19,882 nt of DNA, taken from a virus. Lineage: Duplodnaviria; Heunggongvirae; Uroviricota; Caudoviricetes. The notes below the pieces were generated by a model, which had not been told where the DNA came from, ran no database searches, and saw only the letters and a program-made list of their open reading frames with translations. Positions within the stretch are counted from its first letter, which is position 1, and each line of letters begins with the position of its first letter. The stretch lies in the IMG/VR virus record IMGVR_UViG_2548876858_000016; one strand, given 5' to 3'. The position numbers were made by a program, and so were the translations under genes. Shown piece after piece: positions 2,891-17,432 of the stretch.

Positions 2891-3079
2891 ATGGAAGAAA
2901 AAGAACAGAACATAACACATGAAAAAGTCAGAGTGTTGTTGACCATTGAAAATGGGAAGGTAATTCACTCAAAACATCTGTTGGATAATGAATTTGTTGG
3001 CTGCACGGATACATTTTTGTGGATGGTAAAACGAGCGGGTTACACTATTATTCCACCAGCAAAGGAGCAAACATTATGA
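2891..3079 (+). CDS. Hypothetical small protein (62 aa)
   Basis: Internal start of track ORF 2876..3079, with GGGAGA SD 7 nt upstream of the ATG at 2891. Stop overlaps the next start (ATGA at 3076-3079). Confidence 0.4.
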   Translation: MEEKEQNITHEKVRVLLTIENGKVIHSKHLLDNEFVGCTDTFLWMVKRAGYTIIPPAKEQTL

Positions 3080-3657
3080 ATCATTCAGAGTTCCGACCAG
3101 AAGTTACGCCACACGGTATAAAAATTGGCAATACAACCATAGATTATGCCGAGGCCGTACAGCGACTTAATGATGGTGAATATGATTATCCAAATTCACG
3201 CGGTTTAAGAATTCTTCAGTGCCTTGCTGAAGCGGATGATGCCGGATTGCTGGGAAAATTATCCGTCGATATGAAAGTTGCTCAATGGCGCTGGCTGTAT
3301 GTTACGACGTTTATAAATGAAGAGGAAGTCAGGAACGGCACCGTTGATATCCCTAACGATAATGGGACTACATATCGTGCAGTTATTTATAAGGGGAAAT
3401 ATGGTTGCATGAGTATATACCCTGAACCAATTCGCATTGCCCTGCAAAACCATGTCGAATGGGGATTCATTGAAAAATATGGCGAAGCTGAAGGCATGGG
3501 GCGAGTTCTGTTTCTCTATCAAAAAATGCTCATCGCAGATCCTGATAATGGCTTCATTGTCTCTGCTATGGGACGAGAAGGGCTTGAACTTCTTCTGGAT
3601 GAAATGATTCACGATCTGAATACTCATGGTATGCCAGAAACACCAGTGGCACATTAA
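3076..3657 (+). CDS. Hypothetical protein (193 aa)
   Basis: Internal start of track ORF 3019..3657 (track start is GTG without SD). ATG at 3076 has AAGGAG SD 8 nt upstream. Confidence 0.6.
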   Translation: MNHSEFRPEVTPHGIKIGNTTIDYAEAVQRLNDGEYDYPNSRGLRILQCLAEADDAGLLGKLSVDMKVAQWRWLYVTTFINEEEVRNGTVDIPNDNGTTYRAVIYKGKYGCMSIYPEPIRIALQNHVEWGFIEKYGEAEGMGRVLFLYQKMLIADPDNGFIVSAMGREGLELLLDEMIHDLNTHGMPETPVAH

Positions 3658-3659
3658 AT

Positions 3660-3938
3660 ATGTCAAATCAGAATAAAATTAATGTATTTCAGGTTGAGTC
3701 AAAACATAAAACACCTGTGATAAAACACGTTCGCCGCCATACACGCATCTATACGCCAGAAGAGTTTATGGCAATGCCAATGATAAAGAAACTCATACGA
3801 GACAATCCCGGTCTCGTTGCTATAGATAAAAACAGTGGAGAAATAATGTTATCACGTGAGATTGCCGAAATTTACTGTAGCGTGAATAACAGTAAAAAGT
3901 TGAAAAAGGCAATCAGAAAGATATCAGGAGGAGCATGA
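3660..3938 (+). CDS. Hypothetical basic protein (92 aa)
   Basis: Track ORF, 2 nt after the previous stop; its stop overlaps the next start (ATGA at 3935-3938). Confidence 0.5.
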   Translation: MSNQNKINVFQVESKHKTPVIKHVRRHTRIYTPEEFMAMPMIKKLIRDNPGLVAIDKNSGEIMLSREIAEIYCSVNNSKKLKKAIRKISGGA

Positions 3939-4123
3939 ATATTTATTTCAGAATAGTCATATCACTGGCAATTATCTCATGCATTTACGGATTACTCGTC
4001 CCGTTTCTGATATCAATGAAGGATACGGTAGCGGTAATTTCTGGCTTTGCACTGGCGTTTCTGACCCCGCCATGCATTTATGCCATTTATAAGGGGCTTT
4101 CTTTCACTAAGGATAAAAGATGA
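3935..4123 (+). CDS. Small membrane protein with two hydrophobic segments (62 aa)
   Basis: Track ORF; AGGAGG SD; segments IVISLAIISCIYGLLVPFLI and VAVISGFALAFLTPPCIYAI. Coupled on both sides by ATGA overlaps. Confidence 0.55.
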   Translation: MNIYFRIVISLAIISCIYGLLVPFLISMKDTVAVISGFALAFLTPPCIYAIYKGLSFTKDKR

Positions 4124-4947
4124 AAAAAATTATTTTTTCTTTAGCCATTGTTCTGCCTGCCATTGGCCTTGTCGGTTGTGATCGTGTTGAGCCTGGTAAT
4201 GTGGGCATCAAAGTCAACAAACTTGGCGACGACAAAGGCGTCGGTGAAGTGGTCGGTGTTGGTCGCTACTGGACAGGCTGGAACACTGAAGTTTATATCT
4301 TCCCGACCTTTAAGCAGATGAAGACCTACGATGATCCATTCAGTTTCCAGATGAGCGATGGAACAACCATTGGTTACCACATCGGAGTAGCCTACAAGGT
4401 TGATCCATCCAAAGTTACCACGGTGTTTCAAACCTACCGCAAAGGTGTGGATGACATTACCGACACCGACCTGCGCCAGAAGATAGCAGATGCACTAAAT
4501 CGGCTGGCCAGCAAAATGACCACTGATAAATTTATCGACGGTGGCAAATCTGAACTACTGGATGCAGCTCTAAAAGATATTCAGGCAGAAATGACGCCCA
4601 TCGGTATTCAGGTAATGAGCCTGTCTTATGTAGGTAAACCGGAGTACCCGCCAACCGTTATCGACAGCATTAACGCCAAAGTCACGGCAAACCAGAAAAC
4701 CCTGCAACGCGAGCAGGAAGTAAAACAGCGCGAAGCGGAAGCCAACATGTTGCGTGCGGAGGCTGCCGGACAGGCAGATGCAATTCGCACAAAAGCCCAG
4801 GCCGAAGCCGATGCTATTCGTTTACGCGGTGAAGCTCTGCGCCAGAACCCCGGAGTTATGGAGCTGGAAGCCATCAATAAATGGAACGGCACACTGCCGC
4901 AATACATGACCAGCGGAGCCAATACACCCTTTATCCAGGTTAAATAA
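4120..4947 (+). CDS. SPFH/band-7 (stomatin/HflK-C-like) domain lipoprotein
   Basis: 275-aa ORF; N-terminal signal peptide with lipobox LVGC (MKKIIFSLAIVLPAIGLVGC); central region resembles the SPFH fold; A/E/Q-rich coiled-coil tail (QREAEANMLRAEAAGQADAIRTKAQAEADAIRLRGEA); AAGGA SD 6 nt upstream. Confidence 0.75.
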   Translation: MKKIIFSLAIVLPAIGLVGCDRVEPGNVGIKVNKLGDDKGVGEVVGVGRYWTGWNTEVYIFPTFKQMKTYDDPFSFQMSDGTTIGYHIGVAYKVDPSKVTTVFQTYRKGVDDITDTDLRQKIADALNRLASKMTTDKFIDGGKSELLDAALKDIQAEMTPIGIQVMSLSYVGKPEYPPTVIDSINAKVTANQKTLQREQEVKQREAEANMLRAEAAGQADAIRTKAQAEADAIRLRGEALRQNPGVMELEAINKWNGTLPQYMTSGANTPFIQVK

Positions 4948-4954
4948 CTTATAT

Positions 4955-4973
4955 GCCCGGCAGGCCGCCGGGC
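4955..4973 (+). other. GC-rich hairpin (GCCCGGC-aggcc-GCCGGGC) between the SPFH gene and the next gene, without a U-tract
   Basis: Perfect 7-bp GC stem with 5-nt loop; no T-run follows, so not a classical intrinsic terminator; possible RNA-stability or processing element. Confidence 0.4.
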
Positions 4974-4987
4974 TAAGGGAAAAGCAG

Positions 4988-5347
4988 ATGAACACTCATA
5001 ATACTCAACCGCAAATAATGAACTATGACCCAAATCTGACGTTATGCGGACGCATGGCAAAACAAACCGTTCGATTAATTTTCGGGCTATGGGAATACCG
5101 CGAAACATTCGAAGTCACTGTCGGTGGCAACCTGACCGGACTCGATGTTATCAGTTGCGCTATTGAAAGCCTGTACGAAACGCTGCCTTATGAAGAAGTC
5201 GAGGATGAGCGCGATATCATCGCCACCATTAATATCGGCGGCGTGAAATGCAAGGATGAAAACTTGATCGGAGAGCTATGGCTTGCCGGAATGCTTATCT
5301 CAGCAGAAATTATCAGTATTGAACCCGCTACAAACATACGGCTCTGA
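4988..5347 (+). CDS. Hypothetical protein (119 aa)
   Basis: Track ORF; AAGGG SD 8 nt upstream. Confidence 0.5.
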   Translation: MNTHNTQPQIMNYDPNLTLCGRMAKQTVRLIFGLWEYRETFEVTVGGNLTGLDVISCAIESLYETLPYEEVEDERDIIATINIGGVKCKDENLIGELWLAGMLISAEIISIEPATNIRL

Positions 5348-5378
5348 AGTTCTCACAACTCAGGGAACAGGAGAAAAA

Positions 5379-5621
5379 ATGTTCGCTTTGATTAATCAAG
5401 GGCAACTGTATACCGACAGTGCCGGTTACCCGGTAAAAATTATTCGCTGCATAAATAATATCGTGTTGTACAGAAGAATGGATGGGCGAACACAGTCGGT
5501 AAAAATAAACGATTTTAATGAACTGTTTGAACGGATCGATCACCAGGAATACCGACAAATTCTGGCAGAAACAGAGCAGGAAGCTCATCTGAAAAAATTA
5601 CGAGCCATGAAAAGGAAGTAA
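5379..5621 (+). CDS. Hypothetical small protein (80 aa)
   Basis: Internal ATG of track ORF 5283..5621, with AGGAGA SD ~5 nt upstream. Confidence 0.5.
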   Translation: MFALINQGQLYTDSAGYPVKIIRCINNIVLYRRMDGRTQSVKINDFNELFERIDHQEYRQILAETEQEAHLKKLRAMKRK

Positions 5622-5779: not shown

Positions 5780-6016
5780 ATGGGCAATGTGATTCAACTG
5801 GCTCCCAATGAATGGGTTTGTGAAAGCGTTCTAATCGCAATTACCGGGCTCAAACCAGGCACAATTCTTCGGGCCCGGAAAGAATGCTGGATGGTTGGAA
5901 GAGAGTATATTCACGTATCACCAGACGGTAATCCAAAGCCTTCCAGTGAATGTATGTATAACAGAAAAGCAATAGATGCCTGGGTTGCTTCAATGAAAAA
6001 CAAACAACCTGGGTGA
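5780..6016 (+). CDS. Excisionase-like (Xis-type) small DNA-binding protein
   Basis: 78-aa ORF immediately upstream of the integrase; EW...R...W...GREY pattern reminiscent of lambda-type Xis; GAGGT SD. Confidence 0.55.
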   Translation: MGNVIQLAPNEWVCESVLIAITGLKPGTILRARKECWMVGREYIHVSPDGNPKPSSECMYNRKAIDAWVASMKNKQPG

Positions 6017-6071: not shown

Positions 6072-7385
6072 ATGGATAAAGTCAAATATCCAACAGGCGT
6101 CGAAAACCACGGTGGCACATTACGCATCTGGTTTAATTTTAAAGGTAAACGTGTCAGGGAAAATCTTGGTGTCCCTGACACTGCCAAGAACAGGAAGATC
6201 GCCGGAGAGCTGCGGACATCTGTATGTTTTGCTATTCGTACAGGAAACTTTGATTACGCTGCGCAGTTCCCTGACTCTCCTAACCTCAAGGCTTTTGGGG
6301 TAAGTAAAAAAGAAATTACGGTGAAGGAACTTGAAGAAAAGTGGCTGGATCTGAAACGAATGGAAATCTCTGCAAATGCATTCAATCGCTATGAATCCGT
6401 TGCAAGAACGATGGTTCCGAAAATTGGAGGCAGCAGACTGGTGTCATCGGTAACTAAAGAGGAATTGCTGTATATCAGGAAAGATTTGCTGACCGGATAT
6501 CAGAATTCAACGAAAAACAAAGCAGCAGCAAAAGGACGGAGCGTCGTTACTGTAAATTATTACATGACGACAATCGCTGGAATGTTTCAGTTTGCTGCAG
6601 ATCACGGTTACCTAGAAGCAAATCCTTTCCAGGGAATTAAGCCTCTTAAAAGAGCCAGGGCAGAGCCAGATCCGCTAACTCGTGACGAATTTATTCGCCT
6701 GATAGATGCTTGCCGACATCAGCAGACGAAAAACCTGTGGTCATTGGCTGTGTACACAGGAATGCGTCACGGTGAACTGGTCTCCCTGGCCTGGGAAGAT
6801 ATCGATCTGAAAGCAGGAACTATTACTATCAGGCGCAATTATACGAAACTCGGTGAGTTCGCTCTACCTAAAACTGAAGCAAGTACAAACAGGGTTGTGC
6901 ATCTTATCCAGCCCGCTATCAGTGTCCTGAAAAATCAGGCTGAAATGACAAGACTGGGTAAGCAGCACCACATCAAGGTTCAACTACGTGAATATGGGCG
7001 TTCAGTGAATCATGAATGTACTTTCGTATTTAACCCCCAGGTGGTTAGAAAAAGCAAACAGGTCGGTTTTATCTACAAGGTAGATTCTATTGGCGACTCA
7101 TGGGAAACAGCCATTAAGCGTGCGGGCATCAGGCACCGGAAAGCATACCAGTCACGACACACTTATGCGTGCTGGTCATTATCTGCCGGAGCAAACCCAA
7201 GCTTCATTGCCAGCCAGATGGGCCATGCAAGTGCCCAGATGGTGTTCAATGTATACGGAGCATGGATGACTGACAGTAATGCAGAACAGATCGCAATGCT
7301 GAATCAGAAGCTGGCAGATTATGTCCCAATGATGTCCCATGGTCACCAAAGTGACACAAGAGACTTATTAAAATCAGTGGGTTAG
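6072..7385 (+). CDS. int: Tyrosine site-specific integrase (phage integrase family)
   Basis: 437-aa ORF; GGAGGT SD; C-terminal catalytic-domain pattern (TGMRHGEL, HxxR-type segment SRHTYA, catalytic Tyr in NVYGAWM); stop lies directly at the junction with the host-gene fragment. Confidence 0.9.
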   Translation: MDKVKYPTGVENHGGTLRIWFNFKGKRVRENLGVPDTAKNRKIAGELRTSVCFAIRTGNFDYAAQFPDSPNLKAFGVSKKEITVKELEEKWLDLKRMEISANAFNRYESVARTMVPKIGGSRLVSSVTKEELLYIRKDLLTGYQNSTKNKAAAKGRSVVTVNYYMTTIAGMFQFAADHGYLEANPFQGIKPLKRARAEPDPLTRDEFIRLIDACRHQQTKNLWSLAVYTGMRHGELVSLAWEDIDLKAGTITIRRNYTKLGEFALPKTEASTNRVVHLIQPAISVLKNQAEMTRLGKQHHIKVQLREYGRSVNHECTFVFNPQVVRKSKQVGFIYKVDSIGDSWETAIKRAGIRHRKAYQSRHTYACWSLSAGANPSFIASQMGHASAQMVFNVYGAWMTDSNAEQIAMLNQKLADYVPMMSHGHQSDTRDLLKSVG

Positions 7386-7399
7386 CCTTCAATACCCGT

Positions 7400-7813
7400 C
7401 ATGTTAACTGTGTGGAGGGTAACACCACGCTTTATGCCCTGCCGAAACCCGAGGTTGTCCTGCGCTGGCGTGAGCAGACCACAGATGACTTCCGCTTCTG
7501 TTTTAAGTTTCCGGCGACTATTTCGCATCAGGCAGCATTACGGCATTGCGATGATTTAGTGACTGAATTTTTGACCCGCATGTCACCGTTGGCTCCGCGC
7601 ATTGGACAATACTGGCTGCAACTGCCTGCCACATTCGGCCCACGGGAGCTGCCTGCGCTTTGGCATTTTCTCGACTCTCTTCCCGGCGAATTTAATTATG
7701 GTGTGGAAGTCCGCCATCCACAGTTTTTCGCCAAAGGGGAAGAGGAACAAACGATTAATCGCGGTTTACATCAGCGCGGCGTTAATCGGGTGATTTTCAT
7801 CAGACACGTTTAA
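7400..7813 (+). pseudogene. yecE: Internal fragment of a DUF72-family host gene (yecE-like), disrupted on both sides
   Basis: Frame encodes ~135 aa (VEGNTTLYALPKPEVVLRWREQTTDDFRFCFKFP...GVEVRHPQFF...) with no plausible start. Assignment to DUF72/yecE is from memory of the family. The fragment sits between the integrase and the serine recombinase. Confidence 0.5.
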
Positions 7814-7914
7814 ATACACCACCTAAAGCGATACAATCTAGGGGTTGGTAGATGATTCGGATGAAGCATCCTCATAACAAGCCCAACTGCTATTAGTTTT
7901 TATGGTGGTAAAGA

Positions 7915-9438
7915 ATGAAACGTGTAATCAGCTACATCAGATTCAGTTCTGAGCGACAAGCCAAAGGCGACTCACTACGCAGACAGTCTAAGATGGTTAA
8001 TGACTGGCTTAAGGCTCATCCTGAGTACTACCTTGACCAAGATTTATCCTTCCGTGATTTGGGGGTGAGTGGGTTCACTGGTAAGCACTTGAAAGGTGGC
8101 TTAGGTGACTTTTTAACCGCTATCGAGAAAGGGCTTGTTAAAGCTGGTGATACGCTCTTGATAGAATCTCTTGACCGTCTGTCACGTCAAGATGTAGACC
8201 AAGCAAGTGAGCTACTCAGAAACATTCTTCGCTCTGGTGTAGATGTGGTCACCTTGTCCGATGGTGAACATTACACACGAGAATCTCTTAAAGACCCGTT
8301 AGCTCTGATTAAAAGCATTCTGATAATGCAGCGGTCGCATGAGGAGAGTTTGAGGAAGTCTGAGCGTATACAAGCTGCATGGAACCGTAAAAAAGAACTC
8401 ATCTCTGAAGGTATCAAGATTTCTAAACGTTGTCCTGCATGGCTTAAGCTTAATGATGACCGTAAAAGCTTCTCTGTAATCCCTGAGAAAGTGGAGACTG
8501 TGAAGAGGTGCTTTCAGCTACGGTTAGAGGGTAAGTCTATCTGGGAGATTGTCAGGACTCTTAATGATGAAGGTCACCAGACGCTTAACCAATATAAAGC
8601 GGGTTCATTTGGTCAAACCTCAGTACAAGACCTTCTGAAAAATCGCTCTGTAATTGGTTACTTCACACCTAAAGGCTGTGAAGAGATAGCTGATTATTAT
8701 CCTGCAATTATAGATGAAACAACATTCTACAAAGTCCAGCAACTATCATATGCTCGTTACGGTAGAAAACCTGCTTCAGATAAGCCAATGGCTGTGAATC
8801 TTTTCAAAGGTGTTATCCGTTGCTCTGAATGTGGTCATGCTCTGATTATCACAGGCTTTAGCGATACAAGAAACGGGATTTATCGCTGTCCCCTTCGTAA
8901 TGAAAACCGTTGTAGTGCTAAAGGGCTGTCACGTAAGCAAACCGATGGTACATTGCTTACCCTGCTATCTCGTCTTGACCGATTTGATAGCGATACGACG
9001 AATACCATCGATACACTGAAGTTACACCGTGAACACATCTCAAGCAATATTGAGAAGCTGGTACAGCTATCACTTGAAATTGAAGATTTGTCAGCTATTA
9101 CCAGCAAGCTAAAACAACTAAAGAATGAGCTATCACAGGTTGATGCGGATATCGAGAAGGAGACACAACGCCTTAAATCTATTGATGTGGGGTGTTTGTC
9201 TGATTGTGACTTGACTACAAAGGCGGGAAGGATTGAAGCACAACTGATAATCAAAAGTGCTGTTAAAGAGGTCGTTTTAAATACTGCTAAACGTCGATGT
9301 AAAGTGACTTTTCACAACGGTAAGGTAATTGACCTACCAATAACAGAAAACCCCTCAGACAACGTTACAGAGGCTATACAGTCGCTTTCTGAAGTCACTG
9401 AGAGGGGTTTAATAGATGTTGATGAGGTTATCATATAG
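7915..9438 (+). CDS. Large serine recombinase (resolvase catalytic domain + recombinase domain + zinc-ribbon)
   Basis: 507-aa ORF; N-terminal YIRFSSERQ with catalytic Ser; Cys cluster CSECGH...YRCPLRNENRC; C-terminal coiled coil. Confidence 0.85.
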   Translation: MKRVISYIRFSSERQAKGDSLRRQSKMVNDWLKAHPEYYLDQDLSFRDLGVSGFTGKHLKGGLGDFLTAIEKGLVKAGDTLLIESLDRLSRQDVDQASELLRNILRSGVDVVTLSDGEHYTRESLKDPLALIKSILIMQRSHEESLRKSERIQAAWNRKKELISEGIKISKRCPAWLKLNDDRKSFSVIPEKVETVKRCFQLRLEGKSIWEIVRTLNDEGHQTLNQYKAGSFGQTSVQDLLKNRSVIGYFTPKGCEEIADYYPAIIDETTFYKVQQLSYARYGRKPASDKPMAVNLFKGVIRCSECGHALIITGFSDTRNGIYRCPLRNENRCSAKGLSRKQTDGTLLTLLSRLDRFDSDTTNTIDTLKLHREHISSNIEKLVQLSLEIEDLSAITSKLKQLKNELSQVDADIEKETQRLKSIDVGCLSDCDLTTKAGRIEAQLIIKSAVKEVVLNTAKRRCKVTFHNGKVIDLPITENPSDNVTEAIQSLSEVTERGLIDVDEVII

Positions 9439-9452
9439 TTGAGATTCTATCG

Positions 9453-10226
9453 TCAGTAGCGCTTATTCGGATTCACCGAAAACTTCTTCAAAGTACTACC
9501 TGTACCAGCATTATTAAGCACCTTTGAAGCTTGCTCATTAGCGGCATCTGAGAAGGTGCTTTTTCCGTTCTTAACTCTGACATTCCTACCACAATTGATA
9601 CGGGCTTGAAGTTGCTCATTAGAAAGTTCACTCGTAGAGCGATTATATAGCTCCTGACACATCAACATACCGTTACCTAAGCTTGTCGTAGTGTTCCCTG
9701 TATTCTTTTTGCTGGTAGCACCACCATCATTTGTAGTAGCTGTCTTTCCAGTAGCAGCCGAAATATCAGTTTGACCCACAATAGCTTTAAAGTTAATTTC
9801 CTGAAAAGTTAGCTGGATTCTTAGACCATTTGAAATACCAACATCTTTAGAGGCTTTAAAGCTTGTAATAATGGAGTCATCAATTTTAATACCATCTTTA
9901 CAGATGACCGAAATAATCTGCTTCTGGTCACGCCAGTTTTCAAGAGTGTCGATGAAGTTCTCCACCAGCTTATTATCTCTTGAGATAAGGATACTACCGG
10001 ATTCACCAACCACAACCACACCACTGATTGAAATAGTTCTTGGTGAACGCATTACATTATCTGTTACAGTCTGCCCTGATTGCATATTTTGAGTGGTCAC
10101 CATCATAGGGCTGTCATATTCCATCTGTTCAGTTGCTGATAAGGTTAAGAAATTATCTGGCTGTCCTTGTAGATGGAAGTAAACACCATCTTTACCAGTG
10201 TAACGAAGCTGACTAGTGTAAATCAT
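9453..10226 (-). CDS. Hypothetical protein (257 aa); possible tail component by position downstream of the tape-measure-like gene
   Basis: Track ORF; GGAGA SD 5 nt upstream of ATG; convergent with the recombinase gene. No domain recognised. Confidence 0.55.
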
Positions 10227-10309
10227 TAAATTCTCCTTTGATTTCAGAGACTTAGTGTATTTTAATCATTTTTAACCAAGCCTTTGATATATAAGTGTTT
10301 TCTCTGTTA

Positions 10310-10376
10310 AGCGTGAGCTACGTAAAAAATAATTTTTGGTGGGTATATCTGTTCAGAAGATTTCACGTAGCACACG
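10310..10376. promoter_or_regulatory. Copy A of a duplicated intergenic regulatory element (AAGCGTG..TACGTAAA..GTGGGTAT..CAGA..TTTC..ACGTAGCACAC)
   Basis: Shares ordered conserved blocks with 12501-12594; arms CGTGAGCTACGT / ACGTAGCACACG form an 11/12 inverted repeat; lies upstream of gene 9453-10226. Confidence 0.5.
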
Positions 10377-10389
10377 GATATATAAGAAA

Positions 10390-12480
10390 TCATTCTTCCT
10401 CTGGATAGCTTGAACTTAAGAGCATATCCTGCGTGAACTGGTCATTAGCTGATTGATTGAAAGTAAAGAAAGCTGGTTCATCCGGTCTAACAATTGCTTC
10501 ACCAGTGATATTAACTGACAAGGGCTTCTTAGCTTCTACTGTTAAAGCATCAACCTTGCGTGATAGCTCACTAATAGTCATTGCAAGTTGAGCATTACTA
10601 TTAACCATGTCACCCGTAATAGCTGGTGGAGTTGATTGTGTGTTATTTACGAAGTTATTCATCGGTTCTTGGGAGTTAGCAATTTTATCAGCTGCACTAC
10701 TAAACCAACCTTTAACATCGTCCATAGTGAACACTGGTTTAAGTCCAGACTCTTTAGCTAGCTCTGGTAATTTAGCTTGTGCTTCCATTCGTTCAGGTGT
10801 AGAAGCTAATCTTTCATAACCTGCATAGATAGCACTACCAGCTAATAGCATATTCATAGGGTTTAGTCTTGATGGTTTCCCATTCTTTCTATTCACGTTA
10901 TCCGCTGTGGTATCAGCGACCTGACCTAATCTTGTGATAGCAGTCATAAGCCCGTAAATACTTCTGGTTACACCAACAACTTTATTCACAGCAATAACAC
11001 CAGCCAAGACTTTTAAACTATTAATCAAGCCAGAACCTAAAGCATCAACTACTTTCTTTTGCTCATCGGTTAAACCACGATAAGCTAATGTCACCTCATC
11101 GAAGAATGCTCTTACCCTGTAGCTGATATCAGTCAATGAATCGACACCATGCGACATATCGCTCATCAAGCTACCAAGAGATTCACCAAGACTTTTACCA
11201 CTTCCACCAAGAGCGTTTAAAAGCGTTGTTAGGCTTCTTGTGAAATCTTGAAGACCATTTTCAGAACCTCTGAAGATACTATCAAGCGTGGTATTCCAAG
11301 AGTTTTTCAAGTTCCCTAGTTGTGCCTGTGTACTTTCTGAAATGGCTTTCCAGCCACCTTTAGCGGTGATTTGTCTATTCAGTTCCTGAGTGACCTTCTG
11401 AAGAGTATCGGCAGATTTTAAAGCCCCCTTCTTCATGGCATCAAATAATTCCTGTTCACTCTTTCCGGTTGCTTTAGCGAATACCTGAACCATACCAGGA
11501 ACAGCTTCAGCCAGTTGCCCCTTAAGCTCTTCAGCCATAATCTGACCCTTACCAGCCATCTGTGATAATGCTGTCAGTGCTCGCTTAATCTCTTCTTCAC
11601 TTCTCCCCATCAGACGAGCATAGCCAATCATATTTTTAAAAAGTTCTTCAGAACCTTGAATACCCATAGACTCTTTAGCTGAAGCACCAAAACCAGCAAA
11701 CTGTGATTGCAGTTCAGCGATATCTAAACCCGTTGTTTGAGCTAATGACTTTGTGAACTCTTTTACCTGACCTGCATCTTTATCAAATACGAAATCAATT
11801 GAACGCTCAGCACTTGCACGCTGTAAACCAATTTCCATAATCTTCTGATAACTGGCTAATACAGCCTGCATTGAGATAAATGCACCTGCTGTTTTAACTG
11901 CTGCTGAAGACAGGTTATCAAGACTATTAGCTGCTCTGTCAGCATTAATGCTGGTGGATGTATGACCTCTGGCTTTAGCAATTGCTTCTCTGACTGAAGC
12001 GTTTAACTGAGCTAACTTCTCATTGAATTTTGAAGAATCCATTGACCCGGCTTTAGCAGATAGCCCGTAAAACTGAGATTTGATGTATTTCTGCAAAATA
12101 GGGTCAAAGCCTTTTAGCTTAGACATATTAGCTGAGTAAGCCGCTGTGATTGCTCTGTTGCCGCTAATTAGTGGCTGTCTTGGCTGTCTAAGTGGCTTTA
12201 AAGTATCCTCAATTTCCGTTTTAATCTTAAACGCTCTAGTGTTTTTAAGACGCTGCTCAATCTTGTCAAAGGTCTTATTAAACTTCCTTTCAAGTTGCCC
12301 TAAAGAACTTGTCAGATTGCTGTCAAGTTGCTTGGTATCGACCTTAAACGCTCTATTCAAATTGCGTTCAATTCTTTGTGCTGACTGCAAAGCTGCCTTT
12401 TCAACTCTTTGCAGTCCCTTAATAACGTTTTCATTGAAGCCTAGCTCAACGATAAAACTATCAACTGTGAATTTGCTCAT
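10390..12480 (-). CDS. Phage tail tape-measure-like protein
   Basis: 696-aa ORF; central region (GSEELFKNMIGYARLMGRSEEEIKRALTALSQMAGKGQIMAEELKGQLAEAVPGMVQVFAKATGKSEQELFDAMKKG) matches the tape-measure core pattern; coiled-coil N-terminus; GAGGTG SD. Confidence 0.7.
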   Translation of the reverse strand: MSKFTVDSFIVELGFNENVIKGLQRVEKAALQSAQRIERNLNRAFKVDTKQLDSNLTSSLGQLERKFNKTFDKIEQRLKNTRAFKIKTEIEDTLKPLRQPRQPLISGNRAITAAYSANMSKLKGFDPILQKYIKSQFYGLSAKAGSMDSSKFNEKLAQLNASVREAIAKARGHTSTSINADRAANSLDNLSSAAVKTAGAFISMQAVLASYQKIMEIGLQRASAERSIDFVFDKDAGQVKEFTKSLAQTTGLDIAELQSQFAGFGASAKESMGIQGSEELFKNMIGYARLMGRSEEEIKRALTALSQMAGKGQIMAEELKGQLAEAVPGMVQVFAKATGKSEQELFDAMKKGALKSADTLQKVTQELNRQITAKGGWKAISESTQAQLGNLKNSWNTTLDSIFRGSENGLQDFTRSLTTLLNALGGSGKSLGESLGSLMSDMSHGVDSLTDISYRVRAFFDEVTLAYRGLTDEQKKVVDALGSGLINSLKVLAGVIAVNKVVGVTRSIYGLMTAITRLGQVADTTADNVNRKNGKPSRLNPMNMLLAGSAIYAGYERLASTPERMEAQAKLPELAKESGLKPVFTMDDVKGWFSSAADKIANSQEPMNNFVNNTQSTPPAITGDMVNSNAQLAMTISELSRKVDALTVEAKKPLSVNITGEAIVRPDEPAFFTFNQSANDQFTQDMLLSSSYPEEE

Positions 12481-16763: not shown

Positions 16764-17432
16764 TCAGCCCAACCTTTGAACAATCCTGTAAGTGGTGCTT
16801 AGAGGTATTCTTAGCGATTCTGCGATGCTCTTGATGGGTTGCCCTTGGTCATACATTTTAATCAACCTGTCAAGCGTCTGTGCATCGTGCATATGAGGTC
16901 TTCCACGTAAACCACCCCTGTTAACCACGGCAAGTAAAAGCATTGTGTCACCACAATAGATTGTCTGGGTAACTTCAACTTTCGGTTTGCGGGGTGTGTT
17001 CCTGTATATCAAAACGCAACTTGGAAACGGTGAGCGCACTACAACACCTCTCTTTCCTGCTGGTGGAAGGTATTTGACTGCTCGGTGTAACGTTCGAATC
17101 TCATGCAGGAAGGGGTTTGTATATACACACCGAAGCCAGTAAGTTGTCTTTGACCTGAGCGGAACCAGACATACACACACATCAGCTTCAGGGGCTTTTA
17201 AGAGGAACTTTTCAGCCATGCTAAACGGCGGGTTAACGAAGACCCGTTCACCAACCCATGATTGATTGTGAATATCATCGGTGAACCGTGGCAACAATGC
17301 GTCATACTCAGTTGCAGCACCATCTAGACTGAAGTTAAACTCACGATGCAGGTTATGAAATAAACGATACGGTGTACGCCAGTCATCAGAACCACCATGA
17401 TAACGACCAACATTGATTATTGGATGCGACAC
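16764..17432 (-). CDS. Phage Dam-family N6-adenine DNA methyltransferase fused to a C-terminal resolvase/Hin-type HTH
   Basis: 222-aa ORF with GTG start (AGAGGGG SD ~10 nt upstream). N-terminal ~150 aa shows DDWRTP...F.F.LDGAA...NPPFS...SPFPS, which I recognise as the phage Dam MTase pattern; C-terminal GRPHMHDAQTLDRLIKMYDQGQPIKSIAESLRIPLSTTYRIVQRLG resembles a serine-recombinase HTH. Confidence 0.7.
   Translation of the reverse strand: MSHPIINVGRYHGGSDDWRTPYRLFHNLHREFNFSLDGAATEYDALLPRFTDDIHNQSWVGERVFVNPPFSMAEKFLLKAPEADVCVCLVPLRSKTTYWLRCVYTNPFLHEIRTLHRAVKYLPPAGKRGVVVRSPFPSCVLIYRNTPRKPKVEVTQTIYCGDTMLLLAVVNRGGLRGRPHMHDAQTLDRLIKMYDQGQPIKSIAESLRIPLSTTYRIVQRLG

Follow-up and report, generated by a model that had tools for sequence, protein, structure and literature searches.

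The 19,882-nucleotide Caudoviricetes record IMGVR_UViG_2548876858_000016 (the whole stretch analysed, hereafter the window, whose positions serve as coordinates throughout) carries two overlapping + strand genes at 3935–4947, encoding a 62-residue two-helix membrane protein and a 275-residue SPFH/Band-7 protein predicted to be a lipoprotein, and unrelated phages carry these two genes as a conserved unit. The accessory module that they make up belongs to early regions and is itself conserved; the window copy is an ordinary member of this common and widespread phage module, not a recognisable defence system, and the family is already catalogued, as PHROG 200, PHROG 1130, gp19/gp20 of coliphage N4 and the RefSeq "SPFH domain-containing protein". 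Based on sequence comparison and structural modelling, the best explanation we can offer is that, early in infection, the two proteins would assemble on the inner membrane, facing the periplasm, into a "split" HflK/C-type cage of phage origin, and we give this reading a probability of about 0.4.

Three + strand open reading frames (ORFs) occupy the region: 3660–3938 (92 amino acids, no assigned role), 3935–4123 (62 amino acids, the putative inner-membrane partner) and 4120–4947 (275 amino acids, the SPFH protein). A preliminary description of this DNA, made from the letters alone, had noted all three as consecutive, and its coordinates and the ATGA stop/start overlaps at both junctions proved accurate. 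Shine-Dalgarno sequences precede the 62-residue gene (AGGAGG, 3926–3931) and the 275-residue gene (AAGGA, 4109–4113). An ATGA overlap likewise joins the upstream genes 2891–3079 and 3076–3657, the latter abutting the 92-residue ORF (3657/3660); tight packing and coupling are a property of the whole operon and not peculiar to these three ORFs. The region matched 578 of 5,426 complete E. coli genomes (~11%), with most matches starting at window position ~3903 and only 80 of the 578 also spanning the 92-residue gene. Unrelated genes occupy the position upstream of the pair in other phages, and the product of the 92-residue ORF had no Pfam, PHROG or PADLOC match. We therefore rejected the three ORFs as one unit, since the 92-residue gene, although translationally coupled to the other two in this prophage, is not conserved with them; the conserved module consists of the pair. 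The 1,288 bases from 3660 to 4947 are 99.8% identical to a prophage in E. coli MS8345 (NZ_CP025401), in which RefSeq lists the three genes as two hypothetical proteins and an "SPFH domain-containing protein"; the Stx2e phage phiP27 is related to this prophage, with 90.6% identity across the region.

A tblastn search with the SPFH protein returned 383 GenBank phage records, spanning lambdoid/Stx, P1-like, P2-like, SSU5-like, N4-like, rV5-like, FelixO1-like and Bruynoghevirus phages and Burkholderia siphophages, with further records in phiCbK-like, jumbo and crAss-like phages and Lak megaphages. Its members are frequent in phages that infect non-pathogens (Caulobacter, Erwinia, soil Pseudomonas), environmental and lytic ones alike, and a profile search of 1.84 billion representatives gave 619 clusters (50% identity) at E ≤ 1e-30. 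We then surveyed the co-occurrence of the two genes, as the preliminary description had proposed. In the close set, which comprised the 80 viral contigs with close SPFH relatives from a first scan and holds near-identical loci only, a motif-bearing ORF with two transmembrane (TM) segments lay directly upstream of the SPFH gene in 80/80 loci, its stop codon falling inside the SPFH signal-peptide codons. The diverse set consisted of 80 loci chosen around a distant homologue, the evaluable SPFH genes of which form 36 clusters at 80% identity. A small TM ORF was found within 400 nt upstream in 35 of these 36 clusters, abutting or overlapping the SPFH start in 30 of the 35, and a P-x-h-h-[S/N] motif was present in 31 of the diverse clusters.

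Individual phages illustrate the arrangement. The SPFH start is overlapped by a 67-residue 2-TM ORF in P88 (P2-like), there through ATGA, and by a 78-residue ORF (3731–3967 of locus L003) in the P1-like phage-plasmid RCS47, and a 66-residue 2-TM ORF sits just upstream of the SPFH gene in SSU5. In coliphage N4 the overlapping genes are annotated as gp19 "membrane protein" and gp20 "lipoprotein". The pair also occurs in the N4-like Klebsiella phage KpCHEMY26, Pseudomonas phage PAN70 and Burkholderia phage phi1026b (gp49–gp48), and in the rV5-like BIS47, where an additional small gene separates its members. Strictly lytic phages (N4, N4-like and rV5-like) are thus among its carriers. Among distant lineages, a crAss-like phage has a multi-TM ORF downstream instead of the upstream partner, phiCbK has a 3-TM upstream ORF, and phiEa21-4 has no TM neighbour at its SPFH gene. 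As for annotation, neither RCS47 nor the Stx2 phage records list the small 2-TM gene; close relatives of the window pair were found in Stx2-converting phages.

The 275-residue protein begins with MKKIIFSLAIVLPAIGLVGC, followed by D, and comprises a signal peptide (residues 1–19) of the form MKK-IIFSLAIVLPAIG-LVGC, with a charged n-region, a hydrophobic h-region and a lipobox of the pattern [LVI][ASTVI][GAS]C (L17-V18-G19-C20, 4168–4179, + strand) that places Asp (D21) at position +2. It is predicted to be a bacterial lipoprotein processed by Lgt and LspA. Cys20 is invariant in 11- and 54-sequence SPFH alignments, which bears out the signal peptide and LVGC lipobox of the preliminary description, and a cysteine lies within six residues of the SPFH start in 87 of 99 representatives. 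Pfam Band_7 (PF01145) matched residues 22–208 over profile positions 2–176 of 176 (E = 1.1e-30; 107.5 bits against a cut-off of 23.6), so that the SPFH domain starts two residues past the predicted lipidated cysteine, and PHROG 200 "lipoprotein" matched the protein at E = 1.8e-114.

The AlphaFold2 monomer model, calculated from the 54-sequence alignment, has a mean predicted local distance difference test (pLDDT) score of 80.7. It consists of a signal helix (residues 2–17), a β-rich SPFH1 (20–94), an α/β SPFH2 (96–175), a continuous 65-residue wall helix (178–242; 4651–4845, + strand), a short helix (244–254) and a C-terminal tail (255–275). Both the SPFH/band-7 fold and the "coiled-coil tail" that had been read from the letters thus reappear in the model, the latter as the wall helix. 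The C-terminal tail itself was poorly modelled (low pLDDT), yet it is among the most conserved parts of the family; the residues invariant outside the lipobox in the SPFH alignments are K254, W255, G257, P270 and F271. The tail is compatible with, but no proof of, an inter-subunit role. Foldseek searches of the PDB matched most or all of the chain to HflC, HflK, prohibitin, erlin, stomatin, flotillin and QmcA, with a probability of 1.00 for these seven SPFH chains, 240–300 aligned columns and E values from 8e-14 to 2e-7 (HflC 7vhq_G, 8e-14; prohibitin 8rrh_B, 4e-13; HflK 7vhq_E, 7e-13; QmcA 8z5g, 1.8e-7). By sequence, the only PDB matches were HflK (the best, E = 1e-3) and a prohibitin-2 fragment, and the NCBIfam equivalog cut-offs were missed for both hflC (TIGR01932, 24.6 vs 134.4 bits) and hflK (TIGR01933, 22.7 vs 159.4 bits). 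On these sequence results, with the hflC and hflK scores far below their cut-offs, the protein represents a distinct SPFH family and not an HflK/HflC orthologue.

GenBank records often mislabel the SPFH gene as "serine protease", "transposase" or "peptidyl-tRNA hydrolase"; the first of these labels probably descends from the old COG name "membrane protease subunits", and the 275-residue protein has no protease domain. Searches of PADLOC-DB v2.0.0 at E ≤ 1 gave no match for eight operon proteins (the three ORF products and five neighbours), in agreement with the preliminary description, which had not recognised a named defence system. Among 11 diverse SPFH homologues, PADLOC returned one weak SspF match (E = 0.024, one member), which we took as noise.

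The 62-residue protein contains the two hydrophobic segments noted earlier (residues ~3–28 and ~31–48) and matches PHROG 1130 "membrane protein" (E = 1.5e-23), which is filed under "moron, auxiliary metabolic gene and host takeover". We found 36 homologues of 51–68 amino acids in Enterobacterales. Its predicted topology is N-in/C-in, with TM1 at ~7–27, a periplasmic turn at 27–31, TM2 at ~32–52 and a basic C-terminal tail; this assignment follows from the positive-inside rule (the basic tail KGLSFTKDKR and a 4–5-residue loop) and from the fused relatives described below. Partners of different phages align colinearly and share the signature G19..P23-x-L-[IV]-S27..V34..G37, clustered at the turn between the helices, in which P23 never varies and S27, V34 and G37 hardly do. 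In a 46-sequence alignment, V34 (0.83), G37 (0.96) and G19 (0.65) are conserved without having been selected for by the filter, and the conservation of P23 and S27 is there partly by construction, the filter having demanded both. The partner diverges far faster than the SPFH protein, with 18% identity between the window and P88 copies compared with 93% for the latter. Pfam searches at E ≤ 1 with the partner and 10 diverse homologues yielded no NfeD, Imm_superinfect, holin or other credible family and only noise. The NfeD/YqiJ-type partner that had been suggested for the SPFH protein is thus abandoned: 62 amino acids leave no room for the oligonucleotide/oligosaccharide-binding (OB) fold by which NfeD is defined.

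Relatives in which the two proteins appear joined bear on how they may work together. Of the 150 best representatives at 50% identity, 99 could be evaluated, and in 21 of these 99 the N terminus is extended by 55 amino acids or more. The extension has at least two hydrophobic segments in 18 of the 21 and contains the partner signature in 10 of the 21 (e.g. P0281, "...VLPWLISAKSDLAVGCG...", and P0285, "...LVPALVSAPDTVYAIAG..."), and the cysteine just before the SPFH domain is kept in 18 of the 21. Judging from these features, the extended relatives look like fusions of partner and SPFH protein. For their order (TM1, turn, TM2, basic linker, third hydrophobic segment, SPFH) to make topological sense, the free partner must be N-in/C-in and the SPFH domain must face the periplasm. 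A plain N-terminal TM anchor replaces the lipobox in two viral contigs (L157 and L164), as in HflK/C, and the Gram-positive Mammaliicoccus phage phi6255 likewise has a TM-anchored SPFH protein (L174, 1012–1809). Because fused and TM-anchored variants exist, the family suggests that the small protein and the lipid anchor may jointly do the job of the N-terminal TM anchor of HflK/C. The fused polypeptides P0281, P0282, P0284, P0285, P0292, P0294, P0297, P0313 and P0320 are 330–390 amino acids long and have the lipobox cysteine in their third hydrophobic segment, and the retention of this residue raises the question of internal cleavage and lipidation of the fused proteins.

In E. coli, Asp at position +2 of a lipoprotein is a Lol-avoidance signal that causes retention in the inner membrane (the "+2 rule"). 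Besides C20-D21 of the window protein, Cys-Asp is found in P88, RCS47, SSU5, KpCHEMY26 and phi1026b, and because of this residue we predict that the window lipoprotein stays in the inner membrane, facing the periplasm. Elsewhere the +2 residue is Tyr (N4) or Glu (rV5-like phages), and the commonest in the family is Ser (19/36 clusters; 29/87 representatives). Since Ser dominates, we rejected an extension of the Asp rule to the whole family; lipoprotein sorting rules moreover differ outside enterics, for which reason the family-wide location is not readable from the +2 residue. The fusions and TM-anchored variants argue independently for a location in the inner membrane.

The pair appears to lie in an early lytic operon in each of the three types of temperate phage examined. 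In the window, the gene for a LexA-family (cI-like) repressor (872–1564, same strand as the pair) is followed by an intrinsic terminator (1583–1608, + strand; a 7-bp stem with five GC pairs at 1583–1600, then T8) and, 30 bases past it, by a near-consensus sigma-70 promoter, TTGACA-17-TATTAT (1630–1658, + strand; 11/12 match). A palindrome, ATCG-N6-CGAT, abuts the -35 hexamer as an exact copy (1617–1630) and recurs with one mismatch in the promoter spacer (1642–1655). It is also present in the repressor/cro-side intergenic region, exactly at 823–836, the only other exact copy in the 19.9-kb window, and with one mismatch at 754–767. These palindromes suggest candidate operators of the LexA-family repressor, and from their placement the site at 1630–1658 is likely to be a repressor-controlled, pL-like promoter of the operon that contains the pair. 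Consensus scans predicted no + strand terminator between 1658 and 3935, placed the nearest + strand promoters at 1630 and 2493, well upstream of the pair, and identified no promoter-like site directly upstream of it in either the window or the RCS47 copy. A terminator scan and RNA folding revealed no canonical terminator 3′ of the pair. A GC-rich hairpin directly after the SPFH stop codon (4948–4977, + strand; folding energy -17.1 kcal/mol, z = -2.4) has no U-tract and was not called in the terminator scan; it may stabilise the 3′ end of the mRNA, act as a weak terminator or mark a mosaic joint.

The other contexts agree. In P88 the pair lies between cox, upstream, and a replication gene, a position that we take to correspond to the P2 early operon. 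In P1-like phage-plasmids it (L003, 3731–4775) replaces tciA-tciB-tciC between upl and the tRNA/ban genes, and in reference P1 the tciABC slot (L175, 12234–12930) is downstream of the C1-controlled Pban operators. The replaced genes are TerB-like, with tellurite/colicin resistance assigned by homology, and one membrane-related accessory cassette has here been swapped for another. In N4 the pair is bordered by the RNA polymerase II genes on one side and the replication genes on the other. No holin, endolysin or spanin gene was linked to the pair in any context examined, the neighbours being early-region genes; the conserved lysis or morphogenesis module that the preliminary description had named as evidence against its reading is therefore not what the survey found. 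Because the window promoter and the P88, P1-like and N4 contexts agree, with no promoter-like site directly before the pair in the window or RCS47, the pair looks like an early infection-cycle function and not a moron expressed in the lysogen. The gene just upstream of the N4 pair, gp18 (L004, 2407–2721), is annotated "superinfection exclusion, similar to P22 gp17"; this annotation is the only hint from a neighbouring gene that ties the module to exclusion.

At the DNA level, the lambdoid, P2-like and P1-like copies are 87–90% identical, and their homology is confined to window positions 4168–4914, starting at the lipobox codons and stopping ~30 nt before the stop codon. To judge from these boundaries, exchange moves the small gene together with the signal peptide as a block of its own, and the last ~ten codons belong to another mosaic block. 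A separate exchange block fits the much lower identity of the partners.

As to the remainder of the window, the pair is flanked on its own strand by the repressor gene and a helix-turn-helix (HTH) protein gene (1699–2205), with several small, densely packed genes between the latter and the pair, and on its 3′ side by DUF5406 (4988–5347), DUF4222 (5376–5621), xis (5780–6016) and int (6072–7385). The preliminary description had correctly placed it between the immunity region and xis-int. At 2334–2690, a 118-residue ORF gave a full-length match to PHROG 5451 (E = 5e-79); RefSeq annotates its counterpart in the MS8345 prophage for the C-terminal 65 codons only, and that start may be mis-called. 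Just past int, within 7412–12480, the host gene yecE (DUF72) is truncated (133 amino acids, profile positions 22–138 of 217) and is followed by a 507-residue large serine recombinase (7915–9438) and by opposite-strand phage tail genes (Dit-like, 9453–10226; tape-measure, 10390–12480). A second prophage thus seems to occupy yecE, in a tandem arrangement with the first; the MS8345 prophage differs in having intact yecE-yecN-cmoAB after int, so that the window stems from another strain. Within the second prophage, a 222-residue ORF on the - strand (16764–17432) has an N-terminal match to Dam-type N6-adenine methyltransferases and, at its C terminus, a resolvase-type HTH_7 domain.

In the assembly that we propose, the lipoprotein would be exported, retained in the inner membrane through Asp at +2 and, on the periplasmic side, would oligomerise to form a ring or cage like that of HflK/C. 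The small protein, present at ~1:1, would supply the transmembrane "pickets" or palisade that HflK and HflC carry in the same chain, and its periplasmic turn, which carries all of its strongly conserved residues, would contact the base of SPFH1, giving a "split HflK". The module would be made early after infection or induction and not in the quiescent lysogen, and the assembly would fence off a patch of inner membrane for the benefit of the phage. The role we favour is superinfection exclusion at the step of DNA entry, with the inner membrane of the infected cell made to resist further penetration. We favour it because lytic phages make exclusion proteins early and because the partner evolves much faster than its scaffold (18% vs 93% identity, as given above); the strictly lytic carriers fit an infection-cycle function and provide a further hint. 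Provided that the assembly model holds, this exclusion of further DNA entry during the lytic cycle is our guess at less than even odds, and control of FtsH-type proteolysis would be nearly as likely.

Several observations weigh against this reading. Phages whose injection machines are unrelated share a strongly conserved mature SPFH domain, which fits a conserved host target better and is unusual for exclusion proteins. Asp at +2 is not family-wide, and inner-membrane retention is predictable from it only for the window copy and a few other enterobacterial and Burkholderia copies. The operator assignment comprises two exact and two one-mismatch sites, and the count of ATCG-N6-CGAT across the window is not above chance (7 found vs 4.7 expected). 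Some of the fused ORFs could have arisen artefactually, through gene calling or frameshifts, and P0002 looks like a frame merge of overlapping genes. A Pasteurella prophage HflK/C-like protein, only possibly related to the family, was found in outer-membrane vesicles (PMC9872710). Finally, a 2026 paper states that the reason for the presence of the family in phage "remains unclear" (PMC13239085), and another only speculates, on lysogeny control (PMC10269572).

In the strongest competing explanation, the phage cage would take the place of host HflK/C, or compete with it, at FtsH or a different protease of the inner membrane and so alter the turnover of membrane proteins or phage regulators, a form of host takeover and not of exclusion. 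FtsH degrades the lambda proteins CII, CIII and Xis, and it is universal, which suits both the very broad host range of the family and its strong SPFH conservation. HflC and HflK are the best structural and sequence relatives, with sub-threshold NCBIfam matches to both, and the predicted periplasmic orientation is that of HflK/C; the E. coli SPFH proteins QmcA and YqiK face the cytoplasm. One genome paper has proposed an FtsH/HflKC reading for a Burkholderia phage (PMC10269572). Prohibitin, erlin and stomatin are, however, nearly as similar, and the HflK/C resemblance may reflect general cage architecture only; the NCBIfam scores are far under their cut-offs, and most carriers are strictly lytic and lack a CII-type switch. 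We regard this mimicry as doubtful, though it deserves serious weight. A less probable proposal, drawn by analogy only, is that the scaffold might steady the inner membrane, mechanically or energetically, through a long, high-yield infection, or counter membrane-depolarising abortive systems of the host, and so prevent premature lysis. Organising and stabilising membrane domains is a general property of SPFH proteins, N4 lysis is well known to be delayed, and carriers come from many lineages, including N4, jumbo, phiCbK, crAss-like and Lak phages; the early timing and the location of the genes outside lysis cassettes would also suit such an aid, which on the other side has no holin, endolysin or spanin link in the contexts examined.

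The preliminary description had suggested a membrane-acting superinfection-exclusion or abortive-infection module at a site where lambdoid phages carry exclusion or defence morons. On this reading the pair would be a moron expressed in the lysogen that acts through the membrane, by abortive infection or by exclusion of heterologous phages. The locus between the immunity region and xis-int, the PHROG category of the small protein ("moron, auxiliary metabolic gene and host takeover") and the replacement of the accessory cassette tciABC in P1-like phages speak for it, as does the possibly related Pasteurella prophage protein that is detectable in growing lysogens (PMC9872710). We nevertheless consider it improbable: there was no credible PADLOC match, no promoter-like site directly before the pair and no canonical terminator after it, the pair seems to belong to early lytic operons in three temperate phage types, and it is common in strictly lytic phages. 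Abortive infection is unlikely because such phages carry the pair and it would be self-defeating in them. The same Pasteurella multocida prophage protein, PM0222 (HflK/C-like, 25–35 kDa), occurs in outer-membrane vesicles, induces cytokines through Toll-like receptors (TLR) 1/2 and contributes to virulence in mice (PMC9872710), a precedent for a lysogenic-conversion or virulence factor, that is, a surface- or vesicle-associated lipoprotein acting on the animal host, for instance as a TLR2 agonist. Close relatives of the window pair in Stx2-converting phages would accord with this role. The precedent is only possibly related to the SPFH family, TLR2 stimulation is expected of any triacylated lipoprotein, and phages of non-pathogens, environmental and lytic, often carry the family, so that we judge this explanation the least probable.

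In the full-text literature searched, which covered few subscription journals, we found no functional study of the family beyond genome notes, speculation and the PM0222 paper, and several genome papers call the role of the SPFH family unknown; nor, as far as we found, do these texts mention that the pairing is conserved, that fusions exist or that the genes sit in early operons. The structures of SPFH cages (HflK/C, prohibitin, stomatin, flotillin, erlin) are understood and their role is debated, and the relationship between HflK/C and phage lambda was the founding observation of this field. That phages themselves encode a cage-type SPFH protein, in a large family and with a dedicated 2-TM partner described in no paper that we found, therefore matters beyond the window. 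With considerable reservation, the module could be a widespread, undescribed phage envelope device: a two-piece HflK/C-like cage, spread over a dozen or more unrelated lineages that include N4, crAss-like and Lak phages, that would either seal the cell against DNA entry independently of receptors or capture FtsH or another inner-membrane machine, the fast-evolving partner setting specificity. If exclusion or a takeover of proteolysis were true, the pair would represent a general infection-cycle function common to lytic and temperate phages and would offer a simple two-protein system for SPFH cage assembly and cargo selection.

Among known systems, the closest is gp19–gp20 of N4, which belongs to the same two-gene family, with the same gene order and partner signature: a 68-residue 2-TM ORF overlaps the start of a 278-residue SPFH lipoprotein that is ~62–64% identical to that of the window. 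Unlike the window prophage, N4 is strictly lytic, and its lipoprotein has Tyr and not Asp at +2; no described function for gp19 or gp20 was found in the literature searched. Analogy alone links the module to T4 Imm and Sp, T5 Llp and P22 SieA, small inner-membrane proteins or lipoproteins that act at the envelope. T4 and T5, both lytic, make theirs early, P22 SieA is a prophage product, and T4 Imm is a small 2-TM protein; there is no sequence relationship, and none of these systems contains an SPFH protein. PM0222, compared by description only, resembles the window SPFH protein as an HflK/C-like product of a lambda-like prophage and differs in having been reported in outer-membrane vesicles, as a virulence factor rather than with a phage-cycle function (PMC9872710).

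The E. coli HflK/HflC assembly (PDB codes 7VHP, 7VHQ, 7WI3 and 9CZ2), the FtsH-associated periplasmic SPFH cage, shares with the phage protein SPFH1, SPFH2, the wall helix, a C-terminal segment and the predicted periplasmic orientation. Identity is only 17–18%, however, the phage anchor consists of a signal peptide and a lipid instead of a TM helix, and the module has one SPFH gene and a separate 2-TM partner in place of the HflK/HflC pair. The SPFH–NfeD operons (QmcA–YbbJ, PDB code 8Z5G; YqiK–YqiJ; the archaeal stomatin PH1511/PH1510) similarly place an SPFH gene beside a small membrane partner, with which it is sometimes fused, whereas the phage partner has no NfeD OB-fold and the phage SPFH protein is predicted to be exported, in contrast to the cytoplasm-facing QmcA and YqiK. 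Compared with the known SPFH systems as a whole, this family is thus distinguished by being phage-encoded, by its predicted export and lipid anchor, and by its non-NfeD 2-TM partner.

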